From the NCBI GenBank assembly GCA_008501655.1, contig QQUK01000150.1, positions 1 to 32,923 of the forward strand: 32,923 bases of DNA. The letters are read 5' to 3'. The DNA is from Calditrichota bacterium. GTDB taxonomy: Bacteria; Zixibacteria; MSB-5A5; GN15; FEB-12. Shown in pieces: positions 12,807 to 32,074 of the stretch; position 1 is the stretch's first letter; the number at the start of each line of letters is the position of its first letter. The position numbers and the translations under genes are program-made. The notes beneath the pieces were generated by a model that saw only the letters and a program-made list of their open reading frames with translations, had not been told where the DNA came from and did no database searches.

Positions 12807-12886
12807 TTTAATATCTCTCTTTGATACTATCTAAAGTATCACCGTCCAATTAATCTAATTATCATTTGAAATGGAGAATAATTGCT

Positions 12887-16004: not shown

Positions 16005-18561
16005 TCGAATAATCGAACTTTCGATTAAAAACCGATGGCTGGTTCTCTGGATGACCATAGCAATTCTTGCCCTCGGATTTTGGGCGATTGATAATATTGC
16101 TATTGATGCCATACCGGATTTATCGGATGTTCAGGTAATTATACAAACCGATTATAACGGGCAACCTCCGCAAGTTGTTGAAGATCAGGTTACTTTTCCA
16201 ATCTCTACAGCAATGCTGTCAGTTCCCGGAGCAAAAAATGTTCGCGGCTTCTCATATTTCGGAACATCATTTGTATATATAATTTTTGAAGACGGCACCG
16301 ATATTTACTGGGCACGAAGCCGTGTACTCGAATACCTTTCGCAACTGACCGATAATTTACCGGCTACCGCCAAACCAAAACTTGGTCCTGATGCAACCGG
16401 TGTCGGCTGGGTTTACCAATATATTTTAACTGATACAACCAATCAACTGGATTTAGCTGAATTGCGTTCCTTGCAGGACTGGTTTTTAAAATATGAACTT
16501 TCAGCTCTTGCAGGAGTATCTGAAGTCGCTTCGGTTGGAGGGTTTGTCCGTCAATATCAGGTTGAAGTCGATCCCCGCAAACTGCAGCACTATAACATTC
16601 CATTAAAACATGTCCTGATGGCTGTAAAAAAATCCACTTCTGCAACCGGTGCAAAGCTGATTGAAATCGGTGAAACCGAGTTTATGGTGCGAAGTCAGGC
16701 ATATATCGGTGATTTAGATGATCTCAGGAATCTTCCGATACACAAATCGAAAGATGCCCCGCCAGTTTTACTTTCCTCGGTTGCTGATGTTCACTTAGGT
16801 CCCGACATTCGCCGCGGTATTGCTGAAAATAACGGCGAAGGTGAAACCGTTGGTGGCATCATTGTGATGCGTTATGGCGAAAATGCACGAGAAGTTATCA
16901 AAAAAGTTAAAGAACGAATTGATGAACTTCAGAACAATTTACCCGAAGGGGTTCAGATTCATCCGGTCTACGATCGTACTGATTTGATAAATCGTGCAAC
17001 AGAAAATCTTACGGTAACCTTAATTAAAGAGATGATTTTTGTTGTTCTGATTATCCTGCTGTTTCTTCTCCATGTACGGTCTACTTTGGTTGCGATGATA
17101 GTAATACCAGCCGGGGTCGCATTATCAATCTTGATTATGTATTTGTTAGGTATCAATGCAAACATCATGTCTTTAGGAGGAATCGCCATCGCTATCGGTG
17201 TAATGGTCGATGCTTCGCTTGTCACCGTGGAAAATGCACATAAACATCTGGAGCGATTAAAAGAAGGTGAATCAAGAAATACAGCAATCCTTGAAGCAAC
17301 CAAAGAAGTTGGTCCGGCTCTCTTTTTCTCATTACTGATAATTACCGTTTCATTCCTTCCGGTTCTGGCGCTTGAAGGACAAGCTGGTAGGCTGTTCAAA
17401 CCGCTTGCCTATACAAAAACATTTGCAATGGCAGCTTCAGCACTCCTTTCGATTACCATTGTACCGGCTCTGGTCGTTTTGGTATTAAAAGGTAAAATCA
17501 GGTCAGAGAAAAAGCATCCGGTCTCAAATTTTTTAATTTTACTCTATCGTCCACTCATTAATATTGCCTTAAAATTCAGATGGCTGGTAGTAATCGCGGC
17601 ATTTATCTTATTAGTTATATCAATCATCCCGATATCAAAAATCGGTTCTGAATTTATGCCCCCACTCTATGAAGGTGATCTGCTATATATGCCGACGACC
17701 CTCCCCGGTATGTCGGTTGAAAAGGCTCGGGAACTTCTGCAACAAACTGATCGGATTATTAAAACATTTCCCGAAGTCGAAAATGTATTCGGGAAAGCCG
17801 GTCGCGCTGAAACAGCAACTGATCCAGCTCCATTGACGATGCTTGAAACGACGATAATGCTCAAACCGAAAGAGGAATGGCGTCCGGGACTGACACCGGA
17901 TATGCTCATTGATTCACTTGATGCTGCTGTACAGTTCCCCGGTTTGACAAATTCCTGGACGATGCCAATTCGTACCCGTATTGACATGCTTGCTACCGGA
18001 ATCAAGACTCCAGTTGGAATTAAAATTCTTGGACCGAATCTTGATAGTTTGAATAACATCGCCCAAAGAATCGAAACAGAAGTCAAAACAATGTCCAATA
18101 TTCGCTCTGTTTATGGTGAACGGATTACCGGCGGTAATTATCTTGATATTGATATCGACCGTTTCAAGGCTGCCGCTTATGGGTTGACTCCCGGCGATAT
18201 CAATGAAGCTCTCATGGCTGCCGTTGGCGGAATGAAAGTCATCGACAACATAGAAGGTCGGGAACGGATATCTGTGTTGGTTCGCTATCCAAGAGAACTG
18301 CGAGATAATCCTGAAGAGATTGCCCGTATCATCATTCCCGCACCGGATGGACGCAATGTTCCCTTAGGACAGATTGCTTCTATCGGATTCACAAAAGGTG
18401 CCGCGATGATTAAATCAGAAAATGCCCGCCCGACAGCCTGGGTTTTTATTGATTTGAAAGATATCGATGTTGGAACTTTTGTAGAAAATGCTCAGGAGCA
18501 GGTCGTCAATAATATCAGTTTACCACAGGGATATTCATTAGTTTGGTCGGGGACAGTATGA
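15997..18561 (+). CDS. cusA: CusA/CzcA-family heavy-metal RND pump, N-terminal fragment (frameshifted; fragment 1 of 2)
   Basis: MIDRIIELSIKNRWLVL... is the canonical CusA/CzcA N-terminus. The ATG at 15997 overlaps the adaptor stop (ATGATTGA). The frame ends ...LPQGYSLVWSGTV* at 18561. Confidence 0.85.
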   Translation: MIDRIIELSIKNRWLVLWMTIAILALGFWAIDNIAIDAIPDLSDVQVIIQTDYNGQPPQVVEDQVTFPISTAMLSVPGAKNVRGFSYFGTSFVYIIFEDGTDIYWARSRVLEYLSQLTDNLPATAKPKLGPDATGVGWVYQYILTDTTNQLDLAELRSLQDWFLKYELSALAGVSEVASVGGFVRQYQVEVDPRKLQHYNIPLKHVLMAVKKSTSATGAKLIEIGETEFMVRSQAYIGDLDDLRNLPIHKSKDAPPVLLSSVADVHLGPDIRRGIAENNGEGETVGGIIVMRYGENAREVIKKVKERIDELQNNLPEGVQIHPVYDRTDLINRATENLTVTLIKEMIFVVLIILLFLLHVRSTLVAMIVIPAGVALSILIMYLLGINANIMSLGGIAIAIGVMVDASLVTVENAHKHLERLKEGESRNTAILEATKEVGPALFFSLLIITVSFLPVLALEGQAGRLFKPLAYTKTFAMAASALLSITIVPALVVLVLKGKIRSEKKHPVSNFLILLYRPLINIALKFRWLVVIAAFILLVISIIPISKIGSEFMPPLYEGDLLYMPTTLPGMSVEKARELLQQTDRIIKTFPEVENVFGKAGRAETATDPAPLTMLETTIMLKPKEEWRPGLTPDMLIDSLDAAVQFPGLTNSWTMPIRTRIDMLATGIKTPVGIKILGPNLDSLNNIAQRIETEVKTMSNIRSVYGERITGGNYLDIDIDRFKAAAYGLTPGDINEALMAAVGGMKVIDNIEGRERISVLVRYPRELRDNPEEIARIIIPAPDGRNVPLGQIASIGFTKGAAMIKSENARPTAWVFIDLKDIDVGTFVENAQEQVVNNISLPQGYSLVWSGTV

Positions 18562-18565
18562 AAAT

Positions 18566-19108
18566 ATGCAGGCGGTAGCTACAAAAATGAAAGTCATAAT
18601 ACCGCTGGCATTGTTTGTTATCATAGCATTGCTCTATATCCATTTCAGAAGGATATCTGATACCTTGATTGTGATGCTGTCACTTCCATTTTCATTGGTT
18701 GGCGGTATATGGCTGATTTATCTGCTCGGGTACAACACATCGGTTGCGGTATATATCGGCTTTATTGCACTTGCCGGTTTAGCGGCAGAAACCGGAGTAG
18801 TGATGATTATGTATCTCAATTCAGCCAAAAAACAGAGGGAGATAAATAATCAGCTTCAATCGGATGCTGATTTAAAAGAAGCTATAATCGAAGGTGCCGT
18901 TGACAGAGTCCGGCCAAAAATAATGACTGTTGCTACGACAATTCTGGCATTGCTGCCGGTAATGCTTGGTCATGGAGTCGGTTCAGAAGTAATGCAGCGA
19001 ATCGCTGCACCGATGGTGGGTGGATTGATTACTTCGACATTCCTGACTCTGGTGATCGTTCCGTCACTTTATTACATAGTACATCGAAACAAAGATAAAA
19101 TTATCTAA
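18566..19108 (+). CDS. cusA: CusA/CzcA-family RND pump, C-terminal fragment (TM8-12 region; fragment 2 of 2)
   Basis: The +1 frame reads GQYENMQAVATKMKVIIPLAL..., continuing the conserved WSGQ(Y/F)E block. The fragments sum to about 1040 aa, the normal CusA size. Confidence 0.8.
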   Translation: MQAVATKMKVIIPLALFVIIALLYIHFRRISDTLIVMLSLPFSLVGGIWLIYLLGYNTSVAVYIGFIALAGLAAETGVVMIMYLNSAKKQREINNQLQSDADLKEAIIEGAVDRVRPKIMTVATTILALLPVMLGHGVGSEVMQRIAAPMVGGLITSTFLTLVIVPSLYYIVHRNKDKII

Positions 19109-19153: not shown

Positions 19154-19306
19154 AAAAACCGATACTGTATTAGTATGACTAACGGTCCTATATATTTATC
19201 AATTAAACATTCAATTTTTCTTAATTTCTCAGTTATAAATTCAAATTGATTTCTTAAGTAGTATGCAGTATATATGTCTATGATATTAAAGAGATTAGGT
19301 TAATTG

Positions 19307-20653
19307 ATGAAAAATAGCAGTAACAAAAATCGTCTTGAATCAATTCTATCCTTATTTACTGAAGTGAAAGCAAAAGAGGGTACAAAAGCTCTCTTGATGT
19401 CATTAAACATCTTTTTGATTTTAACAGCTTACCTGATTGCCAAAGTTGTACGTGAACCTTTAATTCTCGATAGTCCCGGTGGTGCCGAAATAAAAAGTTA
19501 TGCTTCAGTTATTCAGGTCTTTTTACTAATCGGAGTTGTACAGATATTTGGATGGTTAGTTTCAAAATTGAGCAGCAGGAAACTCATAAACTCAGTAACT
19601 TTATTTTTTGTATCTTGTTTTGTTCTGTTTTATCTGTCACATCTCATTCTTGGCGGAATAAATGGAATCACTTATTTTCTCTGGGTCGGCATATTTTCTC
19701 TAATGATAATAGCGCAGTTCTGGTCCTTCGCAAATGATATCTATACCCCTGAAGAAGGAAAGCGGTTGTTTGTCCTTCTTGCTTTTGGTGCTTCCTTGGG
19801 CGGTGTGATAGGTCCGACTATTGCTTCAGCGATACTCAGTATATTTGGAATTTTTAATCTATTGTTAGTTTCTGCAGGAATACTGCTTATCTCACTCCTG
19901 TTGACAAATTTTATCATTACAAAATATGTTGATGATATAAGTAACAAGGGAAAAGAAAAAACGAAAACAGAGATAGAAAAAACCGGTGCACTTAAAGTTG
20001 TTTTTCGCAATAGATATTTATTGATGATCGCTCTTTTGATACTTGTCACTAATCTGGTAAATACAACCGGAGAATATATTCTTGGAAAAGGTGTTGAACA
20101 GGCAGCTCAGGACCTTACACCCCAACTATCAGCAGATCCTGATATTCAGAAAACATTTATTGGTAAATTTTATGCCGACTTTTATTCTATCGTCGGGTTT
20201 GTCGGATTGATTTTACAACTGGTCGTTGTTTCCAGGATATTAAAATATTTTGGCGTTCGTACGGCAATTATGACACTGCCGATTATTGCACTCGGGACAT
20301 ATCTGAGCATAGCTATTTTCCCGGTACTTGCTGTTATACGCTGGGGAAAAACAGCTGAAAATGCTACCGATTATTCACTAAATAATACAGTCCGGCACAT
20401 TCTCTTTTTACCAACAACAAAAGAAGAGAAATATAAAGGAAAAGTTGCCATCGACTCATTCTTTGTAAGAGCTGGTGATGTTCTTTCAGCCGGGTTAGTT
20501 TTTGCAGGTGTAAGTTGGTTTACTTTTCAGATTCAGCATTTTGCAATTGTTTGTCTCTGTCTGGTCATAATCTGGCTTTTTATCGCATTCTGGATTGGTA
20601 AAGAAAATAAAAGGTTGATAAAGGAAAAAGAACTCAGCATAGAGAATGTGTAG
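19307..20653 (+). CDS. TLC/AAA-family (ATP:ADP-antiporter-like, Npt-type) membrane transporter
   Basis: LNIFLILTAYLIAKVVREPLIL and FWSFANDIYTPEEGKRLFVLLAFGASLGGVIG resemble the F..FF.IL.NY..LR..KD and FW.FAN.I....EAKRFY.LFG.GAN blocks of TLC nucleotide transporters. The protein is multi-TM. I prefer the ATG at 19307 over the TTG at 19304. Confidence 0.7.
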   Translation: MKNSSNKNRLESILSLFTEVKAKEGTKALLMSLNIFLILTAYLIAKVVREPLILDSPGGAEIKSYASVIQVFLLIGVVQIFGWLVSKLSSRKLINSVTLFFVSCFVLFYLSHLILGGINGITYFLWVGIFSLMIIAQFWSFANDIYTPEEGKRLFVLLAFGASLGGVIGPTIASAILSIFGIFNLLLVSAGILLISLLLTNFIITKYVDDISNKGKEKTKTEIEKTGALKVVFRNRYLLMIALLILVTNLVNTTGEYILGKGVEQAAQDLTPQLSADPDIQKTFIGKFYADFYSIVGFVGLILQLVVVSRILKYFGVRTAIMTLPIIALGTYLSIAIFPVLAVIRWGKTAENATDYSLNNTVRHILFLPTTKEEKYKGKVAIDSFFVRAGDVLSAGLVFAGVSWFTFQIQHFAIVCLCLVIIWLFIAFWIGKENKRLIKEKELSIENV

Positions 20654-20658
20654 ATTCT

Positions 20659-21948
20659 ATGAGAATTCAATTATCCAAATATATATTCATCTCCTGCTTG
20701 ATTGCTTTTACATCAATAGTTAGTCATGCGACTGTTATTGACACCACTAAAGTACGGATAACAAAAAAAGTAAAAAAAACGACTGCCGAGATAATCGGAG
20801 ATATTCCCGGTGAAATACTCAAACTCCCCTTTTATATCTTAGACTTTTCCATCGAACAAATTACATTTCATACCCCGATGAAAAATGTACTGTCCTGGAT
20901 TGGAACACCCCGCCCGGCTGCATTTTATACGCCGGTTGCCGGATACAACTCTTCTGCCGGATTCAAATATGGTATCAGTTTTAAATTTCAGGATGTTTAT
21001 TCAAAAAATGATTATTTTAAAACAAAAATTTATTATTCAACAAATAAATACCAGTCATATCAAATCAAAACAAGATCCAAGGATTTTTTTACCAAAGATT
21101 TTGGTTTTGATTTTTACTTCAGATATAAAAAACGCCCCAGAGAAGATTTCTTTGGAGTATCAAACCAAAGCGTTGCTCACATGAGCGCAAATTATAATTT
21201 GGAGAATACAGAAGTAAAAACTCAGTTACTGTATAATGCTTATGAACAGGCAGACTTCTCATTTATTCTTGGGTATCTGAGTACAAATTTATATAACGGA
21301 GAAAATCCCGATTTACCCGGTGATCTCGATTCGATAACTTCAAATACTGATTATCATTTAGCGGATGGGAATCTTGATGATTCCCGTTTTATTACATACG
21401 GTATGGAAATTGAATATGATCTTCGAAACAACAAAGGGCAGCCTTCAAGCGGGACTCATCTGATTTCTCAGCTGATACGTTACCGTGGTGTTGGTCTTTC
21501 CGATGATTTAAGATTTTCTAAATATTCAATTGATGTCCGGCAGTATCTGCATCTATGGAAAAATAGGATCATTGCTCTCCGTGCCGTAGTTAATCGATTA
21601 AATGCATATAAGAACAACACAAAAGCAACACCGATATATATCTTAAGTTCGCTTGGAGGTAAAGATTACCTTCGGGGATATTCCAGCGGTCGTTTTGTTG
21701 ATAATGATTTTGCCCTCTTTTCTGTTGAATATAGATATCCGATACATGATTTTCTTGATCTTTTCCTCTTTCATGACCAGGCAAGAGTCTATGGAAATCT
21801 GACCGATGAGGAATTCTTCACTAACTGGAAAAGTTCATTTGGCGGTGGTATGCGAATCTGGAAAAGTGATGAAGTCAAAGCTGTCTTTCAGATTGGCAAA
21901 AGCAATGAGGCAACAAAATTGTATTTAGAAATGGAAGCTGTCTGGTAA
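20659..21948 (+). CDS. Omp85/BamA-TamA-family outer-membrane beta-barrel with no obvious POTRA array
   Basis: Signal peptide, GGKDYLRGYSSGRFVDNDFALFSVEYRYP (bacterial surface antigen motif), alternating beta-strand pattern and a C-terminal ...YLEMEAVW aromatic terminus. Confidence 0.75.
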   Translation: MRIQLSKYIFISCLIAFTSIVSHATVIDTTKVRITKKVKKTTAEIIGDIPGEILKLPFYILDFSIEQITFHTPMKNVLSWIGTPRPAAFYTPVAGYNSSAGFKYGISFKFQDVYSKNDYFKTKIYYSTNKYQSYQIKTRSKDFFTKDFGFDFYFRYKKRPREDFFGVSNQSVAHMSANYNLENTEVKTQLLYNAYEQADFSFILGYLSTNLYNGENPDLPGDLDSITSNTDYHLADGNLDDSRFITYGMEIEYDLRNNKGQPSSGTHLISQLIRYRGVGLSDDLRFSKYSIDVRQYLHLWKNRIIALRAVVNRLNAYKNNTKATPIYILSSLGGKDYLRGYSSGRFVDNDFALFSVEYRYPIHDFLDLFLFHDQARVYGNLTDEEFFTNWKSSFGGGMRIWKSDEVKAVFQIGKSNEATKLYLEMEAVW

Positions 21949-21949
21949 G

Positions 21950-23611
21950 ATGAAACGGTTGATTCTACTGTTATTTATAATGGTTATTGCGCTTCAGTTA
22001 TCCTGTGCTCATAATCCACATATCAATCCGGAAGGTCCTTTTTGGAAAGATGATGACACCAAAGCAATTCCTGAACCGGAATATGATGAACCCTCACTTA
22101 TCTGGCTGTCTTTTCAACGAACTACCACCGATCAGCTTTTTGAACTACTTGATATTGATAGAAATATCCGAAAAATTTCCGGAAAACCAACGCAGGCGAA
22201 AAACAGTAATTGCTACGATGAGGTTCCGAACTCCAGCTGGTTTACCAACAGGCATGGGCATCCTGACACAAGATTATCACCGGAAGAGATAAAACAAGGC
22301 TTACAGAGAACTAAAGGTCCCGATACATCAGGTGTATGGAAAGTTTTCCGCCCTAAAGTCGGAGGAGCTACTCCCGGATTCTGGATTGAAGATATCCATG
22401 GTGACCAGTATATCATTAAATTTGATCCTTTATTCAATGCCGAGATGGCTACTGCTGCCGCTGCTATCGGTTCCAGATATTTTTACGCATGCGGTTATAA
22501 TACACCACAGGAGACAATCGTCTTCTGGAATCCGGATAAGCTTGAGATTAAAAAAGGTGCTACCATTAAAGGTAAAAACGGTAAACGCCCCCTTACAATG
22601 ACTGATATAGATAGTATTCTTTCTATGGTAAACCATGAACCCGATGGTTCGATTCGTTCTTTGGCATCTTTAAATATCGGAAATGTTAAAGGTCCTTTTA
22701 TGTATAAAGGAACCAAGGACGATGACCCTAATGATTGGTGCCCTCATGAACATCGGAGAGAACTTCGGGGACTGTATGTTATTGGCTCATTAGTAAATCA
22801 TTATGATTTAAAGGACCATAACTCAATGGATGTGTATGTAGGGGAACCAGGACAAGGTTACTTAAAACATTATTTAATGGATTTTGGTTCTATACTCGGT
22901 TCTGACGGCAAAGGAGATAAACATCCCCGCAAAGGTTATGCAAACATGTTTGATTTACGGGACATTTTAGTGACCTCTTTTACTCTCGGTCTGAAATCAT
23001 GGGCGTGGCAGAATTCCCTTGGTCCCCGCTACTCTTCGATTGGTTATTTTGAATCTGATATTTTTGAACCGAATAAGTTTGACCCGATTATCCCCAATCC
23101 GGCATTTGAACAGATGACCTATCAGGATGCATATTGGGGTGCTAAAATTGTAATGTCATTTACAGAAGAGGATTTGATTGCTTTAATCGATGCCGGACAA
23201 TATAGTAATCCTGAAGCCAAAGCATACCTTTTAAAAACACTAAAAGAACGCCAAAGAAAAATAGGTAATTACTGGTTTGATAAAATCAATCCGCTTGATT
23301 TTCCGGAACTCTCTCAAAGCAGTGAAACTATCAATATTAAATTTCATGATTTAGCTGTTGAGTATGGACTTGAAGATGACAATGCTGTTTATTATTATAA
23401 ATTATTAAATGAGAATAATTCAATTATCCACGAAGCAACCGTATCAAAAACAGAAATAGTCTTAAATGTTGACCAATTTGATAGTGGTATAAGAGAACTG
23501 CAAATTTTTACGGAGCGAAAAGGAAAAGATATTTCAAAGCCTGTTATTTTCTATCTCATGAAACAGTATAAGAATAATGTTAAAATCATCGGCATCGAGC
23601 ATCCGGGATAA
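21950..23611 (+). CDS. Exported (lipo)protein of unknown function with protein/lipid-kinase-like catalytic motifs
   Basis: Signal peptide MKRLILLLFIMVIALQLSC (Cys19, relaxed lipobox). Motifs: GDQYIIKFDP (K157), NAEMATAAA (E165), VNHYDLKDHNSM (D286, K288, N291) and HYLMDFGSILGS (D311-F-G). Confidence 0.7.
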   Translation: MKRLILLLFIMVIALQLSCAHNPHINPEGPFWKDDDTKAIPEPEYDEPSLIWLSFQRTTTDQLFELLDIDRNIRKISGKPTQAKNSNCYDEVPNSSWFTNRHGHPDTRLSPEEIKQGLQRTKGPDTSGVWKVFRPKVGGATPGFWIEDIHGDQYIIKFDPLFNAEMATAAAAIGSRYFYACGYNTPQETIVFWNPDKLEIKKGATIKGKNGKRPLTMTDIDSILSMVNHEPDGSIRSLASLNIGNVKGPFMYKGTKDDDPNDWCPHEHRRELRGLYVIGSLVNHYDLKDHNSMDVYVGEPGQGYLKHYLMDFGSILGSDGKGDKHPRKGYANMFDLRDILVTSFTLGLKSWAWQNSLGPRYSSIGYFESDIFEPNKFDPIIPNPAFEQMTYQDAYWGAKIVMSFTEEDLIALIDAGQYSNPEAKAYLLKTLKERQRKIGNYWFDKINPLDFPELSQSSETINIKFHDLAVEYGLEDDNAVYYYKLLNENNSIIHEATVSKTEIVLNVDQFDSGIRELQIFTERKGKDISKPVIFYLMKQYKNNVKIIGIEHPG

Positions 23612-23615
23612 AAAT

Positions 23616-24452
23616 ATGAAAAACTTATTGAAATGCATTATTGTTCTCGCAATTGTCATGCTTTGGTTTAATGACTCCCCAAAGGCTGACAGCTTTTTAT
23701 CAGCTGGTGATGTTGCCGGTATTTCCGTTGGTACTGCTACCCTGTCGTTTTCAGGATATTACCTCAGAAGATATGACACTACCCGTACAGCTAAAATAAG
23801 TACAACACTTCCCATGGACAATGCTATGATGAAACTTATTGGAGGTTCATTTTATCCGGGTAAAACAAATTTTTTAGATAATCATTTCGGATCAGCTGTT
23901 ACTCCGGTTTCCGGTGCAGTTATTCTTACTATAGCAAACTTATCACATATAAATCATCAAAAAAGTAAATTCTATTTTCAGGACTTGTTTTTGTATACAT
24001 CGGGGATTATTGCAACGAAAGGTGTTACCGATTTAACCAAAGGATTTTTCACTCGTCCGAGACCGTACATTGCATCTGTGCCTATGGAAATGCGGACTTC
24101 AAAAGATTTCATAACAGACCGGTCATCATTCTTTTCAGGGCATACATCGGGTGCATTTTTTGCAGTCTCCTATCTAAATATGCGCATCAGGTCAATCATG
24201 CGCTCGGAAATGTCTTCGCAGGGTTATCGGGATTATCGCTGGATATCTCCAACGTTGTTATACAGCTGGGCAACATTTGTCGGAATGAGCCGTATTCATG
24301 CATACAAACATTATTTTTCCGATATTTTGTTTGGAGCAGCAGCCGGATACCTTATGGCTGAACTATTTTATTCCTTTGGTAAATCAGAAGAGTTAAATAT
24401 GGGAAACAGCGAAGTTTCTCAAATGATAATCCAGCTTAACTTTTCATTTTGA
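23616..24452 (+). CDS. PAP2-superfamily membrane phosphatase (lipid-phosphate phosphatase-like)
   Basis: KGFFTRPRP (KxxxxxxRP), SFFSGHTS (SGH) and SRIHAYKHYFSD (SRxxxxxHxxxD), with a signal/TM segment. The ATG at 23616 lies 4 nt after the upstream stop, and I prefer it over 23577. Confidence 0.85.
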   Translation: MKNLLKCIIVLAIVMLWFNDSPKADSFLSAGDVAGISVGTATLSFSGYYLRRYDTTRTAKISTTLPMDNAMMKLIGGSFYPGKTNFLDNHFGSAVTPVSGAVILTIANLSHINHQKSKFYFQDLFLYTSGIIATKGVTDLTKGFFTRPRPYIASVPMEMRTSKDFITDRSSFFSGHTSGAFFAVSYLNMRIRSIMRSEMSSQGYRDYRWISPTLLYSWATFVGMSRIHAYKHYFSDILFGAAAGYLMAELFYSFGKSEELNMGNSEVSQMIIQLNFSF

Positions 24453-24522
24453 TAGCAACATGAATAGCCTATATTGTATTGATGATAAACAAATTTCGTT
24501 CTTGTTAACGGATTAGATAATA

Positions 24523-26730
24523 ATGACTCATTACAAAACATTTTTTATATCTTTTGCCCTTTTAATTCTGATAACGGCTACCAAAGGCCGTTCAACAGAA
24601 TCATTGGATTTAGATATTAATACTTTGGACACACTTGCATACTTCTGTTCGGTAGATGAAAATTGGTTGTATATTAAAGATGATAAACCTGAATATAAAA
24701 AACTTTCGTATAATGATTCCGGGTGGATCAAAATAGCTCCTTTAATTGATGTCGATTCTGTTGAAAATTACACTTACGGATGGTTTCGTCTCCATCTTAA
24801 TGTTGATTCTTCATTATTCAATAAAAAAGTATATGTTACATGCGTTCAGATCGGCGCGATTGAACTTTATTATAATGAAGAGTTAATATACTCACTTGGA
24901 ACTGTCGGTAAAACCAAAGAATCGGAAATCGCATATTTTCGTCCGAACTATAGCCTCCCATTCGAACTAGAGATTGAGCCGAGAGAAAAACAACTGTTAG
25001 CCGTACGATATTCAGCTGTTAATGAAGAATTGAGAATTCTTCATAACATTGGCGGTGGGTTTGTAATAAAAGCTGATACAGCAAAAAGCGTTATCGCAAA
25101 ATTTCAAGAAGAATCAAATCGTATTGTAAAACACCAGATGTTTTTTACGGGGCTTTGTTTCGCTCTGTTTATCCTGCATATACTCATGTTTCTTTTTTAT
25201 AGAAAATCAAATATCAATCTGTATTTTGCACTCTTCACATTAAGTTGTGCCTTGCTTTCTTATGCTCCGATAGAGTTTAACAAAGCCGGTGTAATCGAAA
25301 AAGCAGTTAATTTGCTCTACCTGTTTAAGCTCTCTTTAATCGGCTGTTCGGTTATGGCAATTCGTGTCCTCTATGCCATTTATTATGAAACAGTTCCCCG
25401 TTCATTTAAATATTTTGCCGGTGCCGGTATCATTATTATGCTGTTTCAATCATATATCAATTTTATGCTGTTTTATGTTATAACCCTCCTTTACTTTCTT
25501 GAAGTGTTCCGGGTTATTCTCAAAGCTATCAAAGATAAAAAAGAAAATCTCTGGATTATTACAACCGGATTTGTTGTCTTTTTACTTTTTTCTACATATC
25601 AAATGTTTCTGGAACTTCTGCAAGTTCCAAATTGGGATTTTTCTCTGATACAGCCGTATATGATTGGTCTCTTTACCCTGATGATTGCTCTTTCCGCTTA
25701 TATTGCACATTCTATATCAGCAACAAATCTTAAACTTGAAAATAAGCTAACTGAAGTAAAAGAGCTATCTGAACATGCATTAGAACAGGAACGATTCGCT
25801 CAGGAACAACAGATGAAGCAGAAACTTCTTGAAGCTGATATCGAACACCAAAAAGAACAAATTGAAAAAGGTAAAGAACTTGAAAAAGCATACAAAGAAC
25901 TCGAAGCAGCGACTAAAAAAATACAGGACACCCAAACTCAGCTTATTCAATCGGAAAAGATGGCATCACTCGGTCAGTTAGTTGCCGGCGTTGCTCATGA
26001 AGTTAACAATCCTATCGGAGCGATCAAAAGTATTCATGCAACGCAGGTAAAGGCTTACGAACGGCTGAAAGAACAACTCACAAATCTTGAAAAACTAAAT
26101 GATTCAGATAGAGAGAAATTTACCAAATATTTGAAAATTATCGAAAATGCAAACTCAGTTATTTCAAACGGCTCAGACCGGGTTTCAGAAATTGTCAGGC
26201 GGCTAAAAAGTTTTGCACGACTTGATGAAGCTGAGTTACAACGAATAGACATCAACGACTGTATTGATGATACACTTTCATTGATTCATCATGAAATTAA
26301 ACATGACATCATTGTTAATAAAATCTGCGGTGAAGTCCCGTTGATCGCCTGTTATCCGGGACAATTGAACCAGGTTCTTTTAAATCTGTTGATAAACGCG
26401 AAACATGCGGTCAATGATGTCGACCGTAAAGGCGAGATTCATATTTCAACCAATTTTATTGAAAATCGTGTTTTGATTATTATTGAAGATAACGGCAAAG
26501 GAATCCCAAAAGAGAATCTGACAAAAGTCTTTGATCCGGGATTTACAACAAAAGGTGTAGGAGTCGGTACCGGGTTGGGTCTCTCAATCTGTTACCAGAT
26601 TATAAAGGACCATCATGGCGAGATAAAAGTTGAAAGTAAAGTAGGTGCCGGCTCAATGTTTGTGATTGATCTGCCGGTAAACTTAGAAGAAATACTCGGT
26701 AAAAAAATTACCGATTCAACTCAAACTTAA
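24523..26730 (+). CDS. 7TM-DISM sensor histidine kinase
   Basis: N-terminal extracytoplasmic domain (YGWFRLHLNV, 7TMR-DISMED2-like), seven consecutive TM helices, a coiled coil, H-box SEKMASLGQLVAGVAHEVNNPIGAI and HATPase blocks NLLINAKHA, DNGKGIP and GVGTGLGLSI. Confidence 0.85.
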   Translation: MTHYKTFFISFALLILITATKGRSTESLDLDINTLDTLAYFCSVDENWLYIKDDKPEYKKLSYNDSGWIKIAPLIDVDSVENYTYGWFRLHLNVDSSLFNKKVYVTCVQIGAIELYYNEELIYSLGTVGKTKESEIAYFRPNYSLPFELEIEPREKQLLAVRYSAVNEELRILHNIGGGFVIKADTAKSVIAKFQEESNRIVKHQMFFTGLCFALFILHILMFLFYRKSNINLYFALFTLSCALLSYAPIEFNKAGVIEKAVNLLYLFKLSLIGCSVMAIRVLYAIYYETVPRSFKYFAGAGIIIMLFQSYINFMLFYVITLLYFLEVFRVILKAIKDKKENLWIITTGFVVFLLFSTYQMFLELLQVPNWDFSLIQPYMIGLFTLMIALSAYIAHSISATNLKLENKLTEVKELSEHALEQERFAQEQQMKQKLLEADIEHQKEQIEKGKELEKAYKELEAATKKIQDTQTQLIQSEKMASLGQLVAGVAHEVNNPIGAIKSIHATQVKAYERLKEQLTNLEKLNDSDREKFTKYLKIIENANSVISNGSDRVSEIVRRLKSFARLDEAELQRIDINDCIDDTLSLIHHEIKHDIIVNKICGEVPLIACYPGQLNQVLLNLLINAKHAVNDVDRKGEIHISTNFIENRVLIIIEDNGKGIPKENLTKVFDPGFTTKGVGVGTGLGLSICYQIIKDHHGEIKVESKVGAGSMFVIDLPVNLEEILGKKITDSTQT

Positions 26731-26733
26731 TCT

Positions 26734-29526
26734 ATGCTAAAATCAGCCCGTTCCATATTTGATATCAGAGAAGGAGAGTATAAGATAACTTTTCTGATGC
26801 TTGCCAATATTTATCTGATACTCCTGACATTCTATTTTCTCAAACCTGCCCGTGATTCTCTCTTTTTAGTGGAACTGGGTGCTGACCAGCTCCCCTATGT
26901 ATTCATTCTCACCGCATTGATTGTGATACCAATAACCACCTTGTATTCCAAAGCAAGCCGGATATTAAAACTGAACCGGCTAATCATATATACGAATGTG
27001 GCTCTGATTTTTTGTCTTTTTATATTAAGGTACTTGATGATTCATCCAAATGACTGGGTCCCCTATCTTTTTTATTCCTGGGTTTCAATTTATGGCGCTT
27101 TGACGACTTCACAGTTCTGGTTATTAGCAAATCATATCTATACCGCTACTCAGGCAAAGCGGTTGTTTTCACTTCTTGGGCTTGGTGCTATTTTTGGCGC
27201 ATTTTCCGGAGGTGAAATTACAAATATAATGGTCGATTATATGAATGTATCAACCGAAGATCTTTTATTGTTTTGTGCCGGCTTTGTCTTCTTCTCGATA
27301 CTGCTCATTAAACTAATTTGGAACTCAAAAAAAACTGAAATCGAGCTGCAACACAGACAGCTTAAAAAAGAACCACAAAGAAAAGAATCACTTTGGACTA
27401 TTTTTGAATCAATAAAAACTTCAAAACACCTTATGTTAATAGTTGGAATTCTATCTATTACAATGATTGTAGGTTCACTGATAGACTTTCAGTTTAAAGC
27501 TATTTCAACCGAATCATTCACCGATACTACAACTGGTATAGTAAATAAATCGGAGTTAACAGCATTTTTAGGAACTTTCTATGGAAGACTTTCATTAGCA
27601 TCTATATTTATACAGATGTTTCTTGCCGGAAAAGTTATCAAAAAATTCGGTGTCGGCACAATTATCCTGTTACTGCCAATTGGATTGCTATTAGGTTCTG
27701 TTGCATTCTTTGCTTACACATCACTGATTTCTGCTGTTCTTCTCCGTGGTACTGATGGCGCATTAAAAAATTCAATTGATAAAACCGGGAGGGAGTTACT
27801 TTTTTTACCGGTTACTCCGGAATTGAAAAAGAGAACAAAACTCTTCATCGATCTTTTTGTCGACAGAGTTGCCAGAGGGCTTGCCGGTTTTCTTTTACTT
27901 TTACTGATCGCTGTTTTTCATTACGATGAGGACCCTGTGTCCGCGATGCAGTCAATTTCTTTGGTCATCGGATTGTTTGTTACTGTTTGGCTAATACTCG
28001 CCTTTCTGATGCGTGTTGAATATGTGAATACTTTCCGTCAGGCGATTGAAAACAGAGAATTGAATCTTTCAGAAATTCGCCAGCAAATTAACGAATCATC
28101 TACAATCAACATCCTCATCACTTCATTGCAAAGCAGCAACCAACGAGAGATTATCTATGCCCTTGATATGCTTGAAGGGATCAAGAATGAATCCCTTATT
28201 GACCCGCTGAACAAGCTTCTACAGCATAATTCTGATGAAATTGTTATTAAAACACTGAAGCTCTTGAAACATAACTATGAAGAGATTGAAATCACCAACA
28301 TAAAATCGTTTGTTGATTCACCAAATCCACAGATTCGAATTCAGGCTCTCCATATTCTCATGCTCAAAGAATCCGATAGATCAGATGAACTTGTTCAGTC
28401 ATATTTGACGCATGAAAATGTTGAACATAGAATAACAGCTATTTGTATGCTTTCTGAAATTGGTACAAATAAACAAACTGCCCTTATAAATGATGTGATG
28501 ATATCAAATATCATTACGTTTTCGGAAGACAATCAGGAAAATCTGAAACTTCTTGTTCGTGCACTCGGTCAACTTCAGAATCCTGAATACTCCAAATATG
28601 TCGGCCGGATGCTCGACCATCCCTCCGATGAAATCGGTAACGAAGCCATAAAGGCGATCAGGAAATTAAAAGATCTTGAGTTTACCAATTGGCTGATCAA
28701 GGCTCTTGCTGATAGCCGGTATCGGGTTGAAGCAAGAAAAACATTAGCATCATTTGGTACATTGATCCTTTATAGACTCAACGAACAATTGAATGATTTT
28801 ACAACATCCTGGCAGATTAAAATTCAATTACCGAAAACAATGAGCCTGATTCATGATCAGATGTCGATTGATATCCTGACCGCATCACTTAGTCACACAG
28901 TAGAAAATTTGAAGTTTCATATTATAAAAGCCCTGAGTAAACTTCGGGTAAATTGTCCTGATCTTAATTTTTATCAGAAAAAGATAGATCAATTTATCAT
29001 TTCCGAAATTAAAATGTATTATCAATATGAACAGATACTATCTGTGATAGCTCAAAATAGTGATGATGAAAAGCTTCTCCATAAATCAATCGAAGAGAGT
29101 CAGAATTTAAAAATTGAACAGATATTCAGGTTACTTGGACTATATTTAAATCCGACAGATATTTACAATGCTTACCAGGCAGTAGTCAGCAAAGACAAAA
29201 ACAGGCAGTCATCAGCTGTCGAACTTTTAGATAATATCTTAAGTAGAGAATTAAAAAAGTATCTGCTTCCTATATTCGATGAACAAGACCGAGATAAAAT
29301 AGTTAATACTGGTAGAGAACTCTATAAACTAAAAAGATTAAGCAGCGAAGGTGCTCTGCTGCTTCTTGTTGATGGTAAAGATATCTGGCTGAAATCACTC
29401 GCCACTTATGTAGCCCGAAATCAGCAAACAGATAAAATTACAAAATCAGTACAGAAACTTCAGAACTATAAAATTACTGTTGTAAATGAAGCTGTTGAAC
29501 TATATCTTAATACAGCAGATAGGTAA
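26734..29526 (+). CDS. TLC-like transporter domain fused to a long C-terminal HEAT-repeat domain
   Basis: The N-terminal ~430 aa are paralogous to 19307-20653 (IYLILLTFYFLKPARDSLFL; FWLLANHIYTATQAKRLFSLLGLGAIFGAFSG). The C-terminal ~480 aa carry HEAT/PBS-lyase-like repeats (NQREIIYALDMLEGI, NPQIRIQALHIL, VEHRITAICMLSEIG, SDEIGNEAIKAIRKL, SRYRVEARKTLASFG). Confidence 0.72.
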   Translation: MLKSARSIFDIREGEYKITFLMLANIYLILLTFYFLKPARDSLFLVELGADQLPYVFILTALIVIPITTLYSKASRILKLNRLIIYTNVALIFCLFILRYLMIHPNDWVPYLFYSWVSIYGALTTSQFWLLANHIYTATQAKRLFSLLGLGAIFGAFSGGEITNIMVDYMNVSTEDLLLFCAGFVFFSILLIKLIWNSKKTEIELQHRQLKKEPQRKESLWTIFESIKTSKHLMLIVGILSITMIVGSLIDFQFKAISTESFTDTTTGIVNKSELTAFLGTFYGRLSLASIFIQMFLAGKVIKKFGVGTIILLLPIGLLLGSVAFFAYTSLISAVLLRGTDGALKNSIDKTGRELLFLPVTPELKKRTKLFIDLFVDRVARGLAGFLLLLLIAVFHYDEDPVSAMQSISLVIGLFVTVWLILAFLMRVEYVNTFRQAIENRELNLSEIRQQINESSTINILITSLQSSNQREIIYALDMLEGIKNESLIDPLNKLLQHNSDEIVIKTLKLLKHNYEEIEITNIKSFVDSPNPQIRIQALHILMLKESDRSDELVQSYLTHENVEHRITAICMLSEIGTNKQTALINDVMISNIITFSEDNQENLKLLVRALGQLQNPEYSKYVGRMLDHPSDEIGNEAIKAIRKLKDLEFTNWLIKALADSRYRVEARKTLASFGTLILYRLNEQLNDFTTSWQIKIQLPKTMSLIHDQMSIDILTASLSHTVENLKFHIIKALSKLRVNCPDLNFYQKKIDQFIISEIKMYYQYEQILSVIAQNSDDEKLLHKSIEESQNLKIEQIFRLLGLYLNPTDIYNAYQAVVSKDKNRQSSAVELLDNILSRELKKYLLPIFDEQDRDKIVNTGRELYKLKRLSSEGALLLLVDGKDIWLKSLATYVARNQQTDKITKSVQKLQNYKITVVNEAVELYLNTADR

Positions 29527-29529
29527 ATT

Positions 29530-29967
29530 ATGTTAAGTATAATTGAAAAAGTTCTCTTTTTACAGAATATTGATGTTTTTGATCAGGTTCCATCGGAACT
29601 TCTTGCTATGCTTGCAGCAATCACTACAGATATTAAAATTCCAAAAGATTCTACAATATATAATATTAATGACCACTCCGATGCGATGTATCTTGTATTA
29701 AGCGGTTCTGTTAAACTGCATATAGATAACAGAGAAATATCAACAGCAAAAAGTAAAGATGCTTTCGGTACCTGGGCACTCTTTGACGATTCACCGAGAG
29801 TTGTTACAGCGGTTACGCTTGAGGATACACATCTCTTAAAAATCGACAGAGAAGAATTTGTTGATCTACTTGCCGACAATGTGCGCATCACTCAGGCAAT
29901 AATGAAAACACTTGTGCAGAGAATGAGAAACCTTGTAAATCGGATTGATATTAGTAGTAATAAATAA
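29530..29967 (+). CDS. Cyclic-nucleotide-binding (cNMP/CAP-effector) domain protein
   Basis: 145 aa with the layout F..V....L..L......I.KD..IY...D..DAMYLVLSGSVKL...FG..ALFD..PR..T..A...T.LLKI.REEF. It has no DNA-binding domain. Confidence 0.78.
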   Translation: MLSIIEKVLFLQNIDVFDQVPSELLAMLAAITTDIKIPKDSTIYNINDHSDAMYLVLSGSVKLHIDNREISTAKSKDAFGTWALFDDSPRVVTAVTLEDTHLLKIDREEFVDLLADNVRITQAIMKTLVQRMRNLVNRIDISSNK

Positions 29968-31529
29968 TGACAAATTCAGATAAGCATAATCATACCGATT
30001 CAATGGAAAAATTCCAACAGATGGTCGAATTTTCAAATGATGCTATATTTTTAATCGACCCAGACAATGCGGCTATCATCTATGCAAATCTGAAAGCTGA
30101 AAAATACTGCCAACTTGATAGAGAGAAATTATACGGATTAAAAGTTTGGGAATTACATCCGGAAGATGAAAAAGATAAAGTTCAAAATGTATTTGAAACA
30201 GTTAAAAAGGAATCTTTTGGATATCATAACGAACTTAATCTCCTGAGACCAGATAAGTCAACTCTTGTAGTCGATGTTTCCTCAACAATGATTACCTGCA
30301 ATGGTATTCAGGTAATTCAGAGAATTTGTCATGATATCACTAATCGTAAAAAATTGATGGAAGATAAACAGCAAATCTTAGATACTTTTAGGCTTGTTTT
30401 GGATATGATGCCGGTAGGATTTGGAATACGGTCTGATTTAAATGGAACACCTAAAATTATTTTTGAAAATATTCAGTTAAAAAAAATGTTTCATACAGAT
30501 GATCAAGACCACAATCATGATCACTGGGATATAGTTGGTAAATCAGACGTTATTTGCGAAAATGTGGTAATAGATGAGAACGGGACCTACGTAGAGGAGC
30601 ACAAACTCCCCGATGGCCGGATTATGCAGTTTACAATCTCGTATATACGGGATCTATATAATGAATGGCGTGAACTGCAGATAGTGCGCGATGTCACCAA
30701 ACGGCGTGAACTTGAACAGGAACTCATCTCAGCTAAAGAAAATCTCGAAGAAAAAGTAAAAGAACGCACTCTTGAATTACAAGAAAAACAAACACAGCTC
30801 ATTCAGGCGGAAAAAATGGCTGCACTCGGCAATCTTGTTGCCGGAGTAGCACATGAAATCAATACTCCGATGGGTGCTTTAAAGAGCAATAATGACCTTT
30901 TTAAGCGGTATATGCTCAAAATTAAAAATATTATTGAATCTTCAGAAAATTCTAAACAACTCATGGGTTCTTTAGCAAAGTTTTTTGAGAATATTGATAA
31001 ATTAAATGATATCAACGAAACAGCGGCGGAACGAATTATCAAAATCGTTCAATCATTAAAGAATTTTGCAAGACTTGATCAATCAGAAAAAGATACAGTG
31101 GATATCCATGAAGGCATTGAATCTACATTGACATTAATTCACCATGAGATTAAAAATAAGATAATTATCGAAAAAGATTATAAGCTTACCAGTATGATTA
31201 ATTGTTATCCGAACCAGCTAAATCAGGTATTCATGAATATTCTGGTTAATGCCGCTCAGGCAATTGAAAAAGAAGGGACAATTAAGATTAAGACTTATCA
31301 ACAGTACTCATCTGCTTATATTGAAATTTCTGACACCGGTAAAGGAATACCTGAATCCGAGCAAAACAGGATTTTTGACCCCGGTTTTACTACCAAAGGA
31401 GTCGGTATAGGTACCGGGCTCGGATTGTCAATTGTACATCAGATTATTCAGCACCATAATGGTGATATTTCTCTTTTGAGTGAAGAAAATAAAGGAACTA
31501 CTTTTACAATTTGTCTCCCCATCAAGTAA
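29967..31529 (+). CDS. Cytoplasmic PAS-domain sensor histidine kinase
   Basis: PAS block FQQMVEFSNDAIFLIDPDNAAIIYAN...CHDITNRK, a second PAS-like region ending VRDVTKRRELE, H-box AEKMAALGNLVAGVAHEINTPMGAL, and HATPase blocks NILVNAAQA, DTGKGIP and GIGTGLGLSI. The ATG overlaps the upstream stop (TAATG). Confidence 0.85.
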   Translation: MTNSDKHNHTDSMEKFQQMVEFSNDAIFLIDPDNAAIIYANLKAEKYCQLDREKLYGLKVWELHPEDEKDKVQNVFETVKKESFGYHNELNLLRPDKSTLVVDVSSTMITCNGIQVIQRICHDITNRKKLMEDKQQILDTFRLVLDMMPVGFGIRSDLNGTPKIIFENIQLKKMFHTDDQDHNHDHWDIVGKSDVICENVVIDENGTYVEEHKLPDGRIMQFTISYIRDLYNEWRELQIVRDVTKRRELEQELISAKENLEEKVKERTLELQEKQTQLIQAEKMAALGNLVAGVAHEINTPMGALKSNNDLFKRYMLKIKNIIESSENSKQLMGSLAKFFENIDKLNDINETAAERIIKIVQSLKNFARLDQSEKDTVDIHEGIESTLTLIHHEIKNKIIIEKDYKLTSMINCYPNQLNQVFMNILVNAAQAIEKEGTIKIKTYQQYSSAYIEISDTGKGIPESEQNRIFDPGFTTKGVGIGTGLGLSIVHQIIQHHNGDISLLSEENKGTTFTICLPIK

Positions 31530-31591
31530 ATTCATTGAAACAATTGCTCTGTTTATGTATATATAGAGATAACAAACGAAGGAGTAGATAA

Positions 31592-32074
31592 ATGTCAGAT
31601 ACAGATAATGATAAAGTTGTATTAATCGTTGATGATGAAGAGATGGTTCTAAGTTCTATCAGTTCATTTCTGGAACTTGAAACATCTTATAAAGTAGTAA
31701 CATTTACAGAACCGGGAAAAGCATTGGAATACGTAAATGAAAACTCAATTGACCTGGTTATTTCTGATTACCTGATGCCGCATATGAACGGTATACAGTT
31801 TCTAAGCAAAATGAAAGAAGTTATGCCTCAGGTTCCCCGTATTATCCTGACCGGCTATGCCGATAAAGAAAATGCTATCAAGGCAATTAATGATGTCGGT
31901 TTATTTCAGTATATAGAAAAACCGTGGGATAACGATGATATTCTTCTGATTATCCGAAACGGTCTGGAACGGAAAGAACTAATGAAAAAACTCGATGATA
32001 AGATTTCACAGATTAACGCTGCATACAGTGAACTTCAGGGGTTGCATAAAGAGATTGTGAAAACTTTTATATAA
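31592..32074 (+). CDS. Stand-alone response-regulator receiver (CheY-like) with a short coiled-coil tail
   Basis: VDDEE acidic pocket, phospho-acceptor in LVISDYLMP, LTGY, KPW, and a GGAG RBS upstream. There is no output domain. Confidence 0.9.
   Translation: MSDTDNDKVVLIVDDEEMVLSSISSFLELETSYKVVTFTEPGKALEYVNENSIDLVISDYLMPHMNGIQFLSKMKEVMPQVPRIILTGYADKENAIKAINDVGLFQYIEKPWDNDDILLIIRNGLERKELMKKLDDKISQINAAYSELQGLHKEIVKTFI

Follow-up and report, generated by a model that had tools for sequence, protein, structure and literature searches.

A family of exported lipoproteins with kinase-like catalytic residues, encoded next to an Omp85 barrel and homologues of nucleotide carriers

The window analysed here is the 32,923 nucleotide contig QQUK01000150.1 (positions 1 to 32,923, forward strand) from the Calditrichota bacterium assembly GCA_008501655.1, which the GTDB places in the Zixibacteria. 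It encodes a lipoprotein, referred to here as the target protein, in a block of co-directional genes (Table 1). The family to which this protein belongs has no annotation and forms a very divergent branch within the superfamily of protein-kinase-like (PKL) proteins, in an unexpected compartment and within a conserved gene system. The best overall explanation has the target protein as a previously undescribed kinase-like enzyme outside the cytoplasm, paired with its own Omp85 barrel and with a system of carriers and a PAP2 phosphatase. This explanation stands at about an even chance of being correct. It is highly probable that the protein combines a kinase-like fold with export by the Sec/lipoprotein pathway.

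The target protein starts with MKR, a hydrophobic stretch and LQLS-C19, with LQLSC at residues 15 to 19 on recomputation. This is a lipobox with an invariant Cys and an atypical Q at position -3. Cys19 is present in 40 of 40 homologues at 48-66% identity and in 57 of 58 genome-derived homologues. Across the family the leader has the same organisation, a hydrophobic stretch being followed by a small residue, the Cys, and then G, A, or S. The original prediction, which was made from the sequence of the window, placed the protein outside the cytoplasm on the basis of a signal peptide ending in LQLSC, and the conservation of Cys19 bears this out. Because the lipoprotein signal is conserved, there are good grounds for placing the protein outside the cytoplasm. 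In the public database, an identical protein (P0001, 543 residues) is called from a start 10 codons later (MVIALQLSC...; the 10 codons are window positions 21950-21979). That start cuts into the signal peptide, and the start at 21950 gives back a normal n-region and h-region.

A word-indexed search identified more than 3,800 homologues of the target protein. Among the matches listed, each named homologue is a "hypothetical protein" with no Pfam domain, and most are from Zixibacteria and other genomes of the FCB group. When 1.84 billion cluster representatives were searched exhaustively with HMMER, 3,534 clusters (50% identity) were found at E<=1e-3 and 1,141 at E<=1e-30, again mostly from the FCB group. 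Cultured hosts of the family are Fodinibius salsisoli (WP_265767479.1) and Fodinibius/Aliifodinibius salipaludis (WP_095605226.1), and the homologues from cultured Fodinibius are "hypothetical" or "uncharacterized" in RefSeq and UniProt. The target protein itself has no match in Pfam or NCBIfam, and no PDB sequence was matched, either by phmmer or with two family profiles.

Residue conservation was assessed in three sets: 40 homologues with 48-66% identity to the target protein, 58 genome-derived homologues reaching down to about 28% identity, and 62 diverse representatives at 30-40% identity. In the first set K157, D286, K288, D289, N291, H307, D311, and F312 are all invariant. In the second, K157, D286, and D311 are present in 58 of 58, N291 in 56, and E165 in 54. 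Even among the 62, K157 and D286 are each found in 58, N291 in 57, and D311 in 59, with E165 in 45. The motif coordinates given in the original prediction for the open reading frame (ORF) at 21950-23611 were all exact on recomputation. Of the residues whose invariance it proposed to check, K157, D286, N291, and D311 are near-invariant, and E165 is moderately conserved (54/58 and 45/62). Position 288 is K or R in 47 of the 62 and D289 is not conserved across the wider family. A Gly-rich beta1-beta2 loop, which was not part of that prediction, is also present, with G139 conserved in 58, K136 in 50, and G143 in 48 of the 62. In the DFG region, where D311-F-G corresponds to nucleotides 22880-22888, H307 and G317 are found in all 62 and F312 in 55.

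The part of the protein that is most strictly conserved in the whole family is a charged block at residues 259-273. D259, D262, R270, and R273 are present in 62 of 62 representatives, H266 in 61, R269 in 60, and N261 in 59. An anionic substrate may bind at this block. H307, G317, D393, W396, and R434 are also invariant or nearly so and have no counterpart in canonical kinases.

An AlphaFold2 model of the target protein was built on the 40-sequence alignment and has a predicted local distance difference test score (pLDDT) of 89.7 and a predicted template modelling score (pTM) of 0.90. The order of its elements is that of a protein kinase: strand beta1 (130-136), the Gly-rich loop, beta2 (143-147), beta3 up to K157, a long helix (166-181) with E165 at its very start, further strands, a helix (275-281), D286 to N291, two strands (292-297 and 303-309), and D311-F-G. 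Each catalytic residue sits on its expected element, with K157 on beta3, D286 and N291 in the loop after alphaE, and D311 after beta8. A helical C-lobe continues to about residue 445, and a separate all-beta domain occupies residues 449-550. The kinase-like core of about residues 125-445 thus lies between a helical N-terminal extension and an Ig-like beta-sandwich.

Comparison of the full model with the PDB by Foldseek returned Caenorhabditis elegans Fam20 (4kqb/4kqa) first, with E 3e-4 and probability 0.97-0.99, followed by Rio2, PINK1, zebrafish Fam20C, and SidJ. A second model, from which the signal peptide and the beta-sandwich were removed, has a pLDDT of 58.8 and was used as supporting evidence only. 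All 50 of its top 50 PDB matches are kinase-like, the Fam20 family leading and then AmiN, MK2, DAPK1, CDPK2, SidJ, PknG, PI4KIIalpha, Rio2, WaaP, and others. The bilobal kinase-like fold foreseen in the original prediction is in agreement with these results. Because the Foldseek scores are weak throughout, the target protein is seen as a very divergent branch of the PKL superfamily, outside any solved family.

The nearest solved structures in both Foldseek searches are those of the Fam20 family (4KQA/4KQB, 5YH0, 5XOO), which includes the Golgi casein kinase Fam20C and the xylose kinase Fam20B. Fam20 and the target protein both have atypical kinase folds with an N-terminal extension, and Fam20 works outside the cytosol. 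Fam20 kinases need nucleotide to be carried into their compartment. The likeness is distant, with 9-13% identity, template modelling (TM) scores of 0.26-0.38, and a root-mean-square deviation of 8.6-16.7 A, and PF06702 (Fam20) gave no match at E<=1 in the window protein or in the 62 members. Fam20 proteins are eukaryotic and without a lipid anchor, whereas the target family has a Gly-rich loop and a D-x-K-x-x-N loop like that of eukaryotic protein kinases.

HipA is the only family to which there is a recurrent signal in sequence. Pfam HipA_2 is matched below threshold in 12 of the 62 members and HipA_C in 7 of the 62; every other family is matched in one member only. The HipA matches cover the N-lobe, from about residue 136 to 230 against profile positions 1-84, and the HipA strands with 'IIK-F/L-(D)P' are similar to those of the target. 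The window protein does not match the HipA profiles (PF07804, PF20613), and the members score 11-16 bits against cut-offs of 27-30.5. When compared by hhalign with Escherichia coli HipA and with a HipA profile, the probability was 0.3-0.6%, which is not significant; the profile was shallow, since the HipA search gave only relatives at >=73% identity, making this a weak test. The only stretches aligned are colinear, with the alphaC regions paired and D286, N291, and D311 opposite D309, N314, and D332 of HipA, which we take to be its catalytic and Mg-binding residues. The HipA N-terminal domain (PF13657) is not matched in the window protein or in the 62 members, there is no HipB-type helix-turn-helix antitoxin among the neighbours of the target (Omp85, PAP2), and HipA is absent from the top 50 Foldseek matches of the target. 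HipA is a cytoplasmic toxin, whereas the target is an exported lipoprotein. A relationship of the family to HipA is suggested by sequence likeness and unproven: of the HipA likeness in the original prediction, the recurrent N-lobe signal stands, but all of the scores are below threshold.

The affinity with PI3K/PI4K that was also predicted is not specifically supported. The kinase-like fold and the D..N and DFG blocks of these enzymes resemble those of the target by eye, and a PAP2 lipid phosphatase beside the target would suit a lipid substrate. However, PF00454 is matched in just 1 of the 62 members (E 0.3), and PI4KIIalpha is at rank 38 among the structural matches with E 0.045, its structure 4HNE having TM 0.25-0.29 against the target.

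A further comparison is with SEAE1, a PKL family described as a 'PAP2-PIK-like module' in Segetibacter (Bacteroidota) in a September 2026 preprint (bioRxiv 10.64898/2026.09.18.752743). Compared by description only, SEAE1 is like the target family in being an unannotated bacterial PKL family with K/D/N/D intact, with identical spacing from D to N (5) and from N to D (20), and with a PAP2 phosphatase nearby; it is also found near a secreted protein of unknown function. Unlike the target, SEAE1 is reported to be intracellular and non-secreted, its PAP2 linkage is reported to be lineage-specific, and no linkage to Omp85 or NTT carriers is described.

The gene context of the family was analysed in 62 homologous loci from GTDB species representatives. 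These span Zixibacteria, Ignavibacteria-labelled metagenome-assembled genomes (MAGs), Balneolaceae, Salinibacter/Salinivenus, Latescibacterota, KSB1, Calditrichota, Bryobacterales, and Cytophagia-labelled MAGs. An Omp85 gene is directly upstream of the target homologue in about 48 of the 55 loci with enough upstream sequence (41 by automated count and seven reclassified against tblastn positions, having been affected by an ORF-start artefact). The original prediction did not list this gene. In the window its stop codon is 1 nucleotide ahead of the ATG of the target gene. No POTRA domain was matched in its 429-residue product in Pfam at E<=1, and the best match in the PDB is to the barrel part of a protein that does contain POTRA. 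At about 405 residues, the mature protein would fit only a 16-strand barrel with no POTRA.

The pairing of Omp85 with the lipoprotein can be repeated within one locus. A distant metagenomic locus, on a contig from ENA ERZ24794666 (3-9324), has three lipoprotein paralogues (586, 596, and 544 residues) and two Omp85-like genes, arranged as two Omp85-then-lipoprotein pairs plus a third tandem paralogue. Because the pair is repeated there, the Omp85 and lipoprotein genes are seen as the core module. Two Hanks-type Ser/Thr kinase genes are also found among these paralogues. Taken with the comparisons above, the results support a protein that is Fam20/HipA-like rather than PI3K/PI4K-like, with Omp85 as its key partner.

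Accessory genes were counted in the 36 loci with >=7 kb on either side. Within 10 kb, a TLC-type carrier is present in 26, an NTT-HEAT carrier in 24, PAP2 in 24, and a cyclic-nucleotide-binding (cNMP-binding) gene in 21. A receiver gene is found in 20, a 7TMR-DISM kinase in 16, and a PAS kinase in 15. The carrier linkage spans Zixibacteria, Balneolaceae, Salinibacter-related bacteria, KSB1, and Cytophagia-labelled genomes. The gene order varies, with one block in the window and in its closest available relative and two convergent blocks in many Zixibacteria, and the retention of the gene set despite this suggests a functional linkage. The linkage was also assessed in reverse, starting from an NTT-HEAT alignment and 80 metagenomic loci. 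The lipoprotein is present in 12 of the 20 loci with >=5 kb on each side and in 6 of the 12 with >=9 kb, always with Omp85 and in some cases as little as about 55 bp away from the carrier. NTT-HEAT is directly followed by the cNMP-binding gene in 63 of 69 metagenomic loci.

That closest relative (SWCD01004516.1, 49.8 kb, metagenomic) has the genes of the window in the same order and orientation from the 449-residue carrier to the receiver, except for the position of the best match to the PAS histidine kinase. Identity to the window is about 65% for the target and 57% for NTT-HEAT.

Parts of this gene set are known from elsewhere. NTT-HEAT carriers that are followed by, or fused to, a cNMP-binding domain form a monophyletic bacterial group that is widespread and has no assigned function (Major, Embley and Williams 2017, PMC5381601), and the 930-residue TLC and HEAT protein and the cNMP-binding gene of the window match this architecture. 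PMC5381601 does not connect them with any kinase-like lipoprotein, with Omp85, or with PAP2, and no later characterisation of the NTT-HEAT clade was found in the literature. The linkage of NTT-HEAT to the kinase-like lipoprotein is a new context for these carriers. For Omp85, POTRA-less "noNterm" genes are found directly before lipoprotein genes in Leptospira (LIC12252/54/58), and a two-partner-like export or assembly system has been proposed (PMC11358297). In both the Leptospira pairs and the window, a POTRA-less barrel is followed by a lipoprotein. In Leptospira the lipoproteins have Big, integrin, or DUF1566 domains, which makes them adhesin-like and not kinase-like, and their function is unproven (PMC11358297).

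It is possible to put these components together. The target protein is most likely an active nucleoside triphosphate (NTP)-dependent transferase outside of the cytoplasm, because the Gly-rich loop, K157, D286, N291, and D311 are all kept; judged from these residues, catalytic activity is reasonably probable. The POTRA-less Omp85 barrel, as an obligate partner, probably serves to dock the lipoprotein at the outer membrane or to translocate it, by analogy with the proposed noNterm Omp85-lipoprotein pairs, and the target would then act at the outer membrane or in the periplasm. Characterised NTT relatives are ATP/ADP antiporters. In an ATP-rich free-living cell, the NTT carriers of the system would take in periplasmic ADP and release ATP from the cytoplasm, as a kinase outside the cytoplasm would require, a step that is tentative and rather doubtful. 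The PAP2 protein would reverse the reaction or recycle phosphate, which would imply a substrate that is lipid-linked or part of the envelope, and the cNMP-binding and two-component proteins would gate the system. A broader version is a dedicated extracytoplasmic phosphorylation system of the FCB group, in which a NTT-HEAT carrier gated by the cNMP-binding protein and a short NTT-like carrier, both in the inner membrane, would export ATP in exchange for ADP to a Fam20/HipA-like lipoprotein that its own POTRA-less Omp85 holds or exports and that acts on an envelope lipid, glycan, or protein, and an outward-facing PAP2 would reverse the mark. As a whole this version is speculative and rather unlikely.

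Several observations weigh against an active, carrier-fed envelope kinase. No sequence method gives significance against any kinase family (Pfam, NCBIfam, PDB sequences, and hhalign against PKA, for which nothing was found, and HipA). The structural similarity is weak, the best E being 3e-4 (to 3e-3) within the TM range of 0.26-0.38, and the confidence of the trimmed model is low (pLDDT 58.8). About a quarter to a half of the loci are without a nearby carrier, and distant members can occur without Omp85 or carriers (L066 and L052). NTT-HEAT is also found in cyanobacteria and Chlamydiae (PMC5381601), where the target family is not seen; because it is present in such phyla, the NTT-HEAT carrier is not dedicated to the kinase. 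Neither substrate nor transport direction is known for any NTT-HEAT protein (PMC5381601). A catalytic residue is lost in about 5-8% of members, and 9 of the 62 deviate at one or more of K157, D286, N291, and D311. Among the divergent members are two from KSB1 and Cytophagia-labelled MAGs (L059 and L061), in which IKHHRRHSS replaces the Gly-rich loop and D-M-G-P-H-H replaces D-L-K-D-H-N. They keep K157 and the DFG motif and have no adjoining Omp85 gene, yet are beside both NTT-type carriers. These may be pseudokinase-like derivatives, and their degenerate look likewise counts against the enzyme reading.

Losses of this kind fit an alternative in which the target is a non-catalytic, pseudokinase-like subunit that the Omp85 barrel uses for binding or as a scaffold, whether to plug it, to regulate it, or to sense a ligand, possibly a nucleotide. 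Kinase-fold proteins without activity exist, Fam20A and others being pseudokinases. There would be no phosphotransfer in a periplasm without ATP, and we know of no established periplasmic NTP pool in bacteria; a literature search on periplasmic and extracytoplasmic kinases gave no bacterial example among the papers listed. This alternative is nevertheless unlikely, since 92-95% of members at 30-40% identity retain K157, D286, N291, and D311, far more strictly than would be expected of a scaffold, and since the two-way linkage to nucleotide-carrier homologues suggests that nucleotide is available. That same linkage bears on the possibility of a surface enzyme, exported to the cell surface by Omp85 and acting on external substrates or with environmental nucleotides, where the NTT genes are linked by shared regulation only. 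The noNterm Omp85-lipoprotein genes have been proposed as surface export pairs (PMC11358297), Ig-like domains, as at the C-terminus here, are typical of proteins at the surface, and the spacing from the Omp85 stop to the target start is 1 nucleotide. It does not account, however, for ATP/ADP-carrier homologues being, across phyla, the accessory genes that persist most, and is considered quite unlikely.

It is also possible that a kinase fold is used for other chemistry, such as AMPylation as in SelO or glutamylation as in SidJ. SidJ is among the structural matches, and the invariant charged block (D259...R273) is without counterpart in canonical kinase motifs. The SidJ match probability is low (0.16-0.57), though, and the Gly-loop, Lys, Asp-x4-Asn, and DFG are all present in canonical order, so that this is very unlikely. 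There remains the idea that the motifs are a chance resemblance, which the original prediction had itself allowed for, or that the start was mis-called and the protein, lacking a kinase fold, stays in the cytoplasm. No Pfam, NCBIfam, or PDB sequence match exists, and the database call P0001 starts 10 codons later and cuts the signal peptide. Even so, this idea is scarcely credible and is effectively refuted by the conservation, model, and Foldseek results: the catalytic residues are conserved in all three homologue sets, which rules out chance motifs, the lipobox Cys and hydrophobic leader are kept family-wide, and two independent models both retrieve kinase folds.

The genes of the window block are nine, co-directional and nearly contiguous from 19304 to 32074 (Table 1). 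The PAP2 gene and the nucleotide-carrier-like transporter that the original prediction had placed beside the target are confirmed, the block having two TLC/NTT-like carriers. The PAP2 gene overlaps the 3' end of the target gene by 35 nucleotides. All three of its catalytic motifs are present (C1 KxxxxxxRP as KGFFTRPRP, C2 SGH within FFSGHTSG as read in the translation, and C3 SRxxxxxHxxxD as SRIHAYKHYFSD), and in the PDB it is best matched by human phospholipid phosphatases 1-3. In the phospholipid phosphatase family the active site faces away from the cytosol, and an outward-facing active site is expected here. The 449-residue carrier matches TIGR00769 far under its cut-off and is in the same position in L005, L006, L029, and L069, the last of these being the closest relative described above. 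A scan of the block for sigma70 promoters and terminators gave counts at chance level.

Table 1. Coordinates of the target gene, its motifs and domains, and the other genes of the block in the window.
Feature	Position	Strand	Basis or details
Target gene; 553-residue lipoprotein with divergent PKL domain	21950..23611	+	ORF, AlphaFold2 model, Foldseek
Signal peptide and lipobox, MKRLILLLFIMVIALQLS-C19	21950..22006	+	Conserved Cys19
Gly-rich beta1-beta2 loop, K136-V-G-G-A-T-P-G143-F-W	22355..22384	+	Between model strands E130-136 and E143-147
beta3 Lys (YIIK157FDP, residues 154-160) and start of alphaC-like helix (E165; NAEMATAAA, residues 163-171)	22409..22462	+	Strand E153-158 ends at K157
Invariant charged block, D259-P-N261-D262-W-x-x-H266-x-x-R269-R270-x-L-R273	22724..22768	+	Conservation; matches no standard kinase motif
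Catalytic-loop-like D286-L-K-D-H-N291	22805..22822	+	Between helix H275-281 and strand E292-297
DFG-type metal-binding motif HYLMDFGSILGS (H307-Y-L-M-D311-F-G-S-I-L-G317-S), residues 307-318	22868..22903	+	After beta8, strand E303-309
C-terminal Ig/Fn3-like beta-sandwich, about residues 449-553	23294..23608	+	All-beta elements E449-550; Foldseek
TLC/NTT-like carrier, MFS-like, 449 residues, first of block	19304..20653	+	PF03219 TLC 83 bits, MFS_1 45 bits
Omp85-family barrel, 429 residues	20659..21948	+	PF01103 at residues 116-400; NF047779 Omp85_fam below threshold
PAP2 lipid-phosphate-phosphatase-like membrane protein	23577..24452	+	PF01569, 74 bits
7TMR-DISM-type sensor histidine kinase	24523..26730	+	Pfam HATPase_c, HisKA, 7TMR-DISM_7TM
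NTT(TLC)-HEAT fusion carrier, 930 residues	26734..29526	+	PF03219 and PF13646
Cyclic-nucleotide-binding protein, 145 residues, 3 nucleotides after NTT-HEAT	29530..29967	+	PF00027
PAS histidine kinase	29967..31529	+	Pfam
Stand-alone receiver protein	31592..32074	+	Pfam

Some features of the target protein lie outside of the kinase-like motifs. Its C-terminal domain has many Foldseek matches to Fn3 and cytokine-receptor domains, with TMt up to 0.55. A type IX secretion system sorting domain was considered for this region and is not supported, there being no NCBIfam match for the window protein at E<=1. The extreme C-terminus, where the Ig-like domain ends, has a G-I/V-E-H motif (window 23594-23602, residues 549-551), with G548 and H551 at >=90% in the 40-sequence alignment, and this might be a docking signal for the Omp85 partner. 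Cys181 (nucleotides 22490-22492) and Cys264 (nucleotides 22739-22741) tend to occur together, with 55 homologues having both, 75 neither, and 27 mixed, and hydrophobic pairs such as A/I are found where they are absent. The pattern would fit residues in contact, possibly a disulfide in the clade of the window. As evidence for a disulfide the co-occurrence was rejected, because the signal is confounded by clade.

In many Zixibacteria a secreted protein of about 425 residues with no Pfam match, designated 'unk423', is encoded between the lipoprotein and PAP2 (L002:7756-9027 and the equivalent site in about 20 loci of Zixibacteria). This protein could serve as an accessory subunit or be acted on as a substrate, and was rejected as a core part because it has no homologue in the window. 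Upstream of the block, two ORFs in different frames at 15973-18561 and 18566-19108 (+) make up a split RND pump gene of CusA/AcrB type, encoding 862 residues (Pfam ACR_tran positions 1-853) and 180 residues (861-1021). A frameshift, a sequencing error, or a pseudogene could lie behind the split. The pump gene is preceded by an OEP gene (12866-14146) and by a CusB-like gene (14133-16004) whose product has five heavy-metal-binding repeats.

To our knowledge, the Gram-negative periplasm is generally taken to be free of ATP, and nucleotide-dependent kinases are not expected there; no bacterial periplasmic kinase surfaced in the literature search mentioned above. Here, a large family of 3,534 clusters with no Pfam or NCBIfam model combines a lipoprotein export signal with an intact kinase catalytic set. 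The family is also genetically tied to NTT-type relatives of ATP/ADP antiporters, and what these carriers do in free-living bacteria has been a question since 2017. The cultured Fodinibius hosts make the idea of an envelope kinase directly testable. If true, it would mean that there is regulated phosphorylation in the bacterial envelope, and would provide a first function for the widespread NTT-HEAT/cNMP-binding carriers of free-living bacteria and a function for one class of POTRA-less Omp85 proteins. The pairing of a compartment-specific kinase with a nucleotide carrier would then not be solely eukaryotic, the bacterial system being an analogue of the kinase and ATP-carrier arrangement of the secretory pathway.

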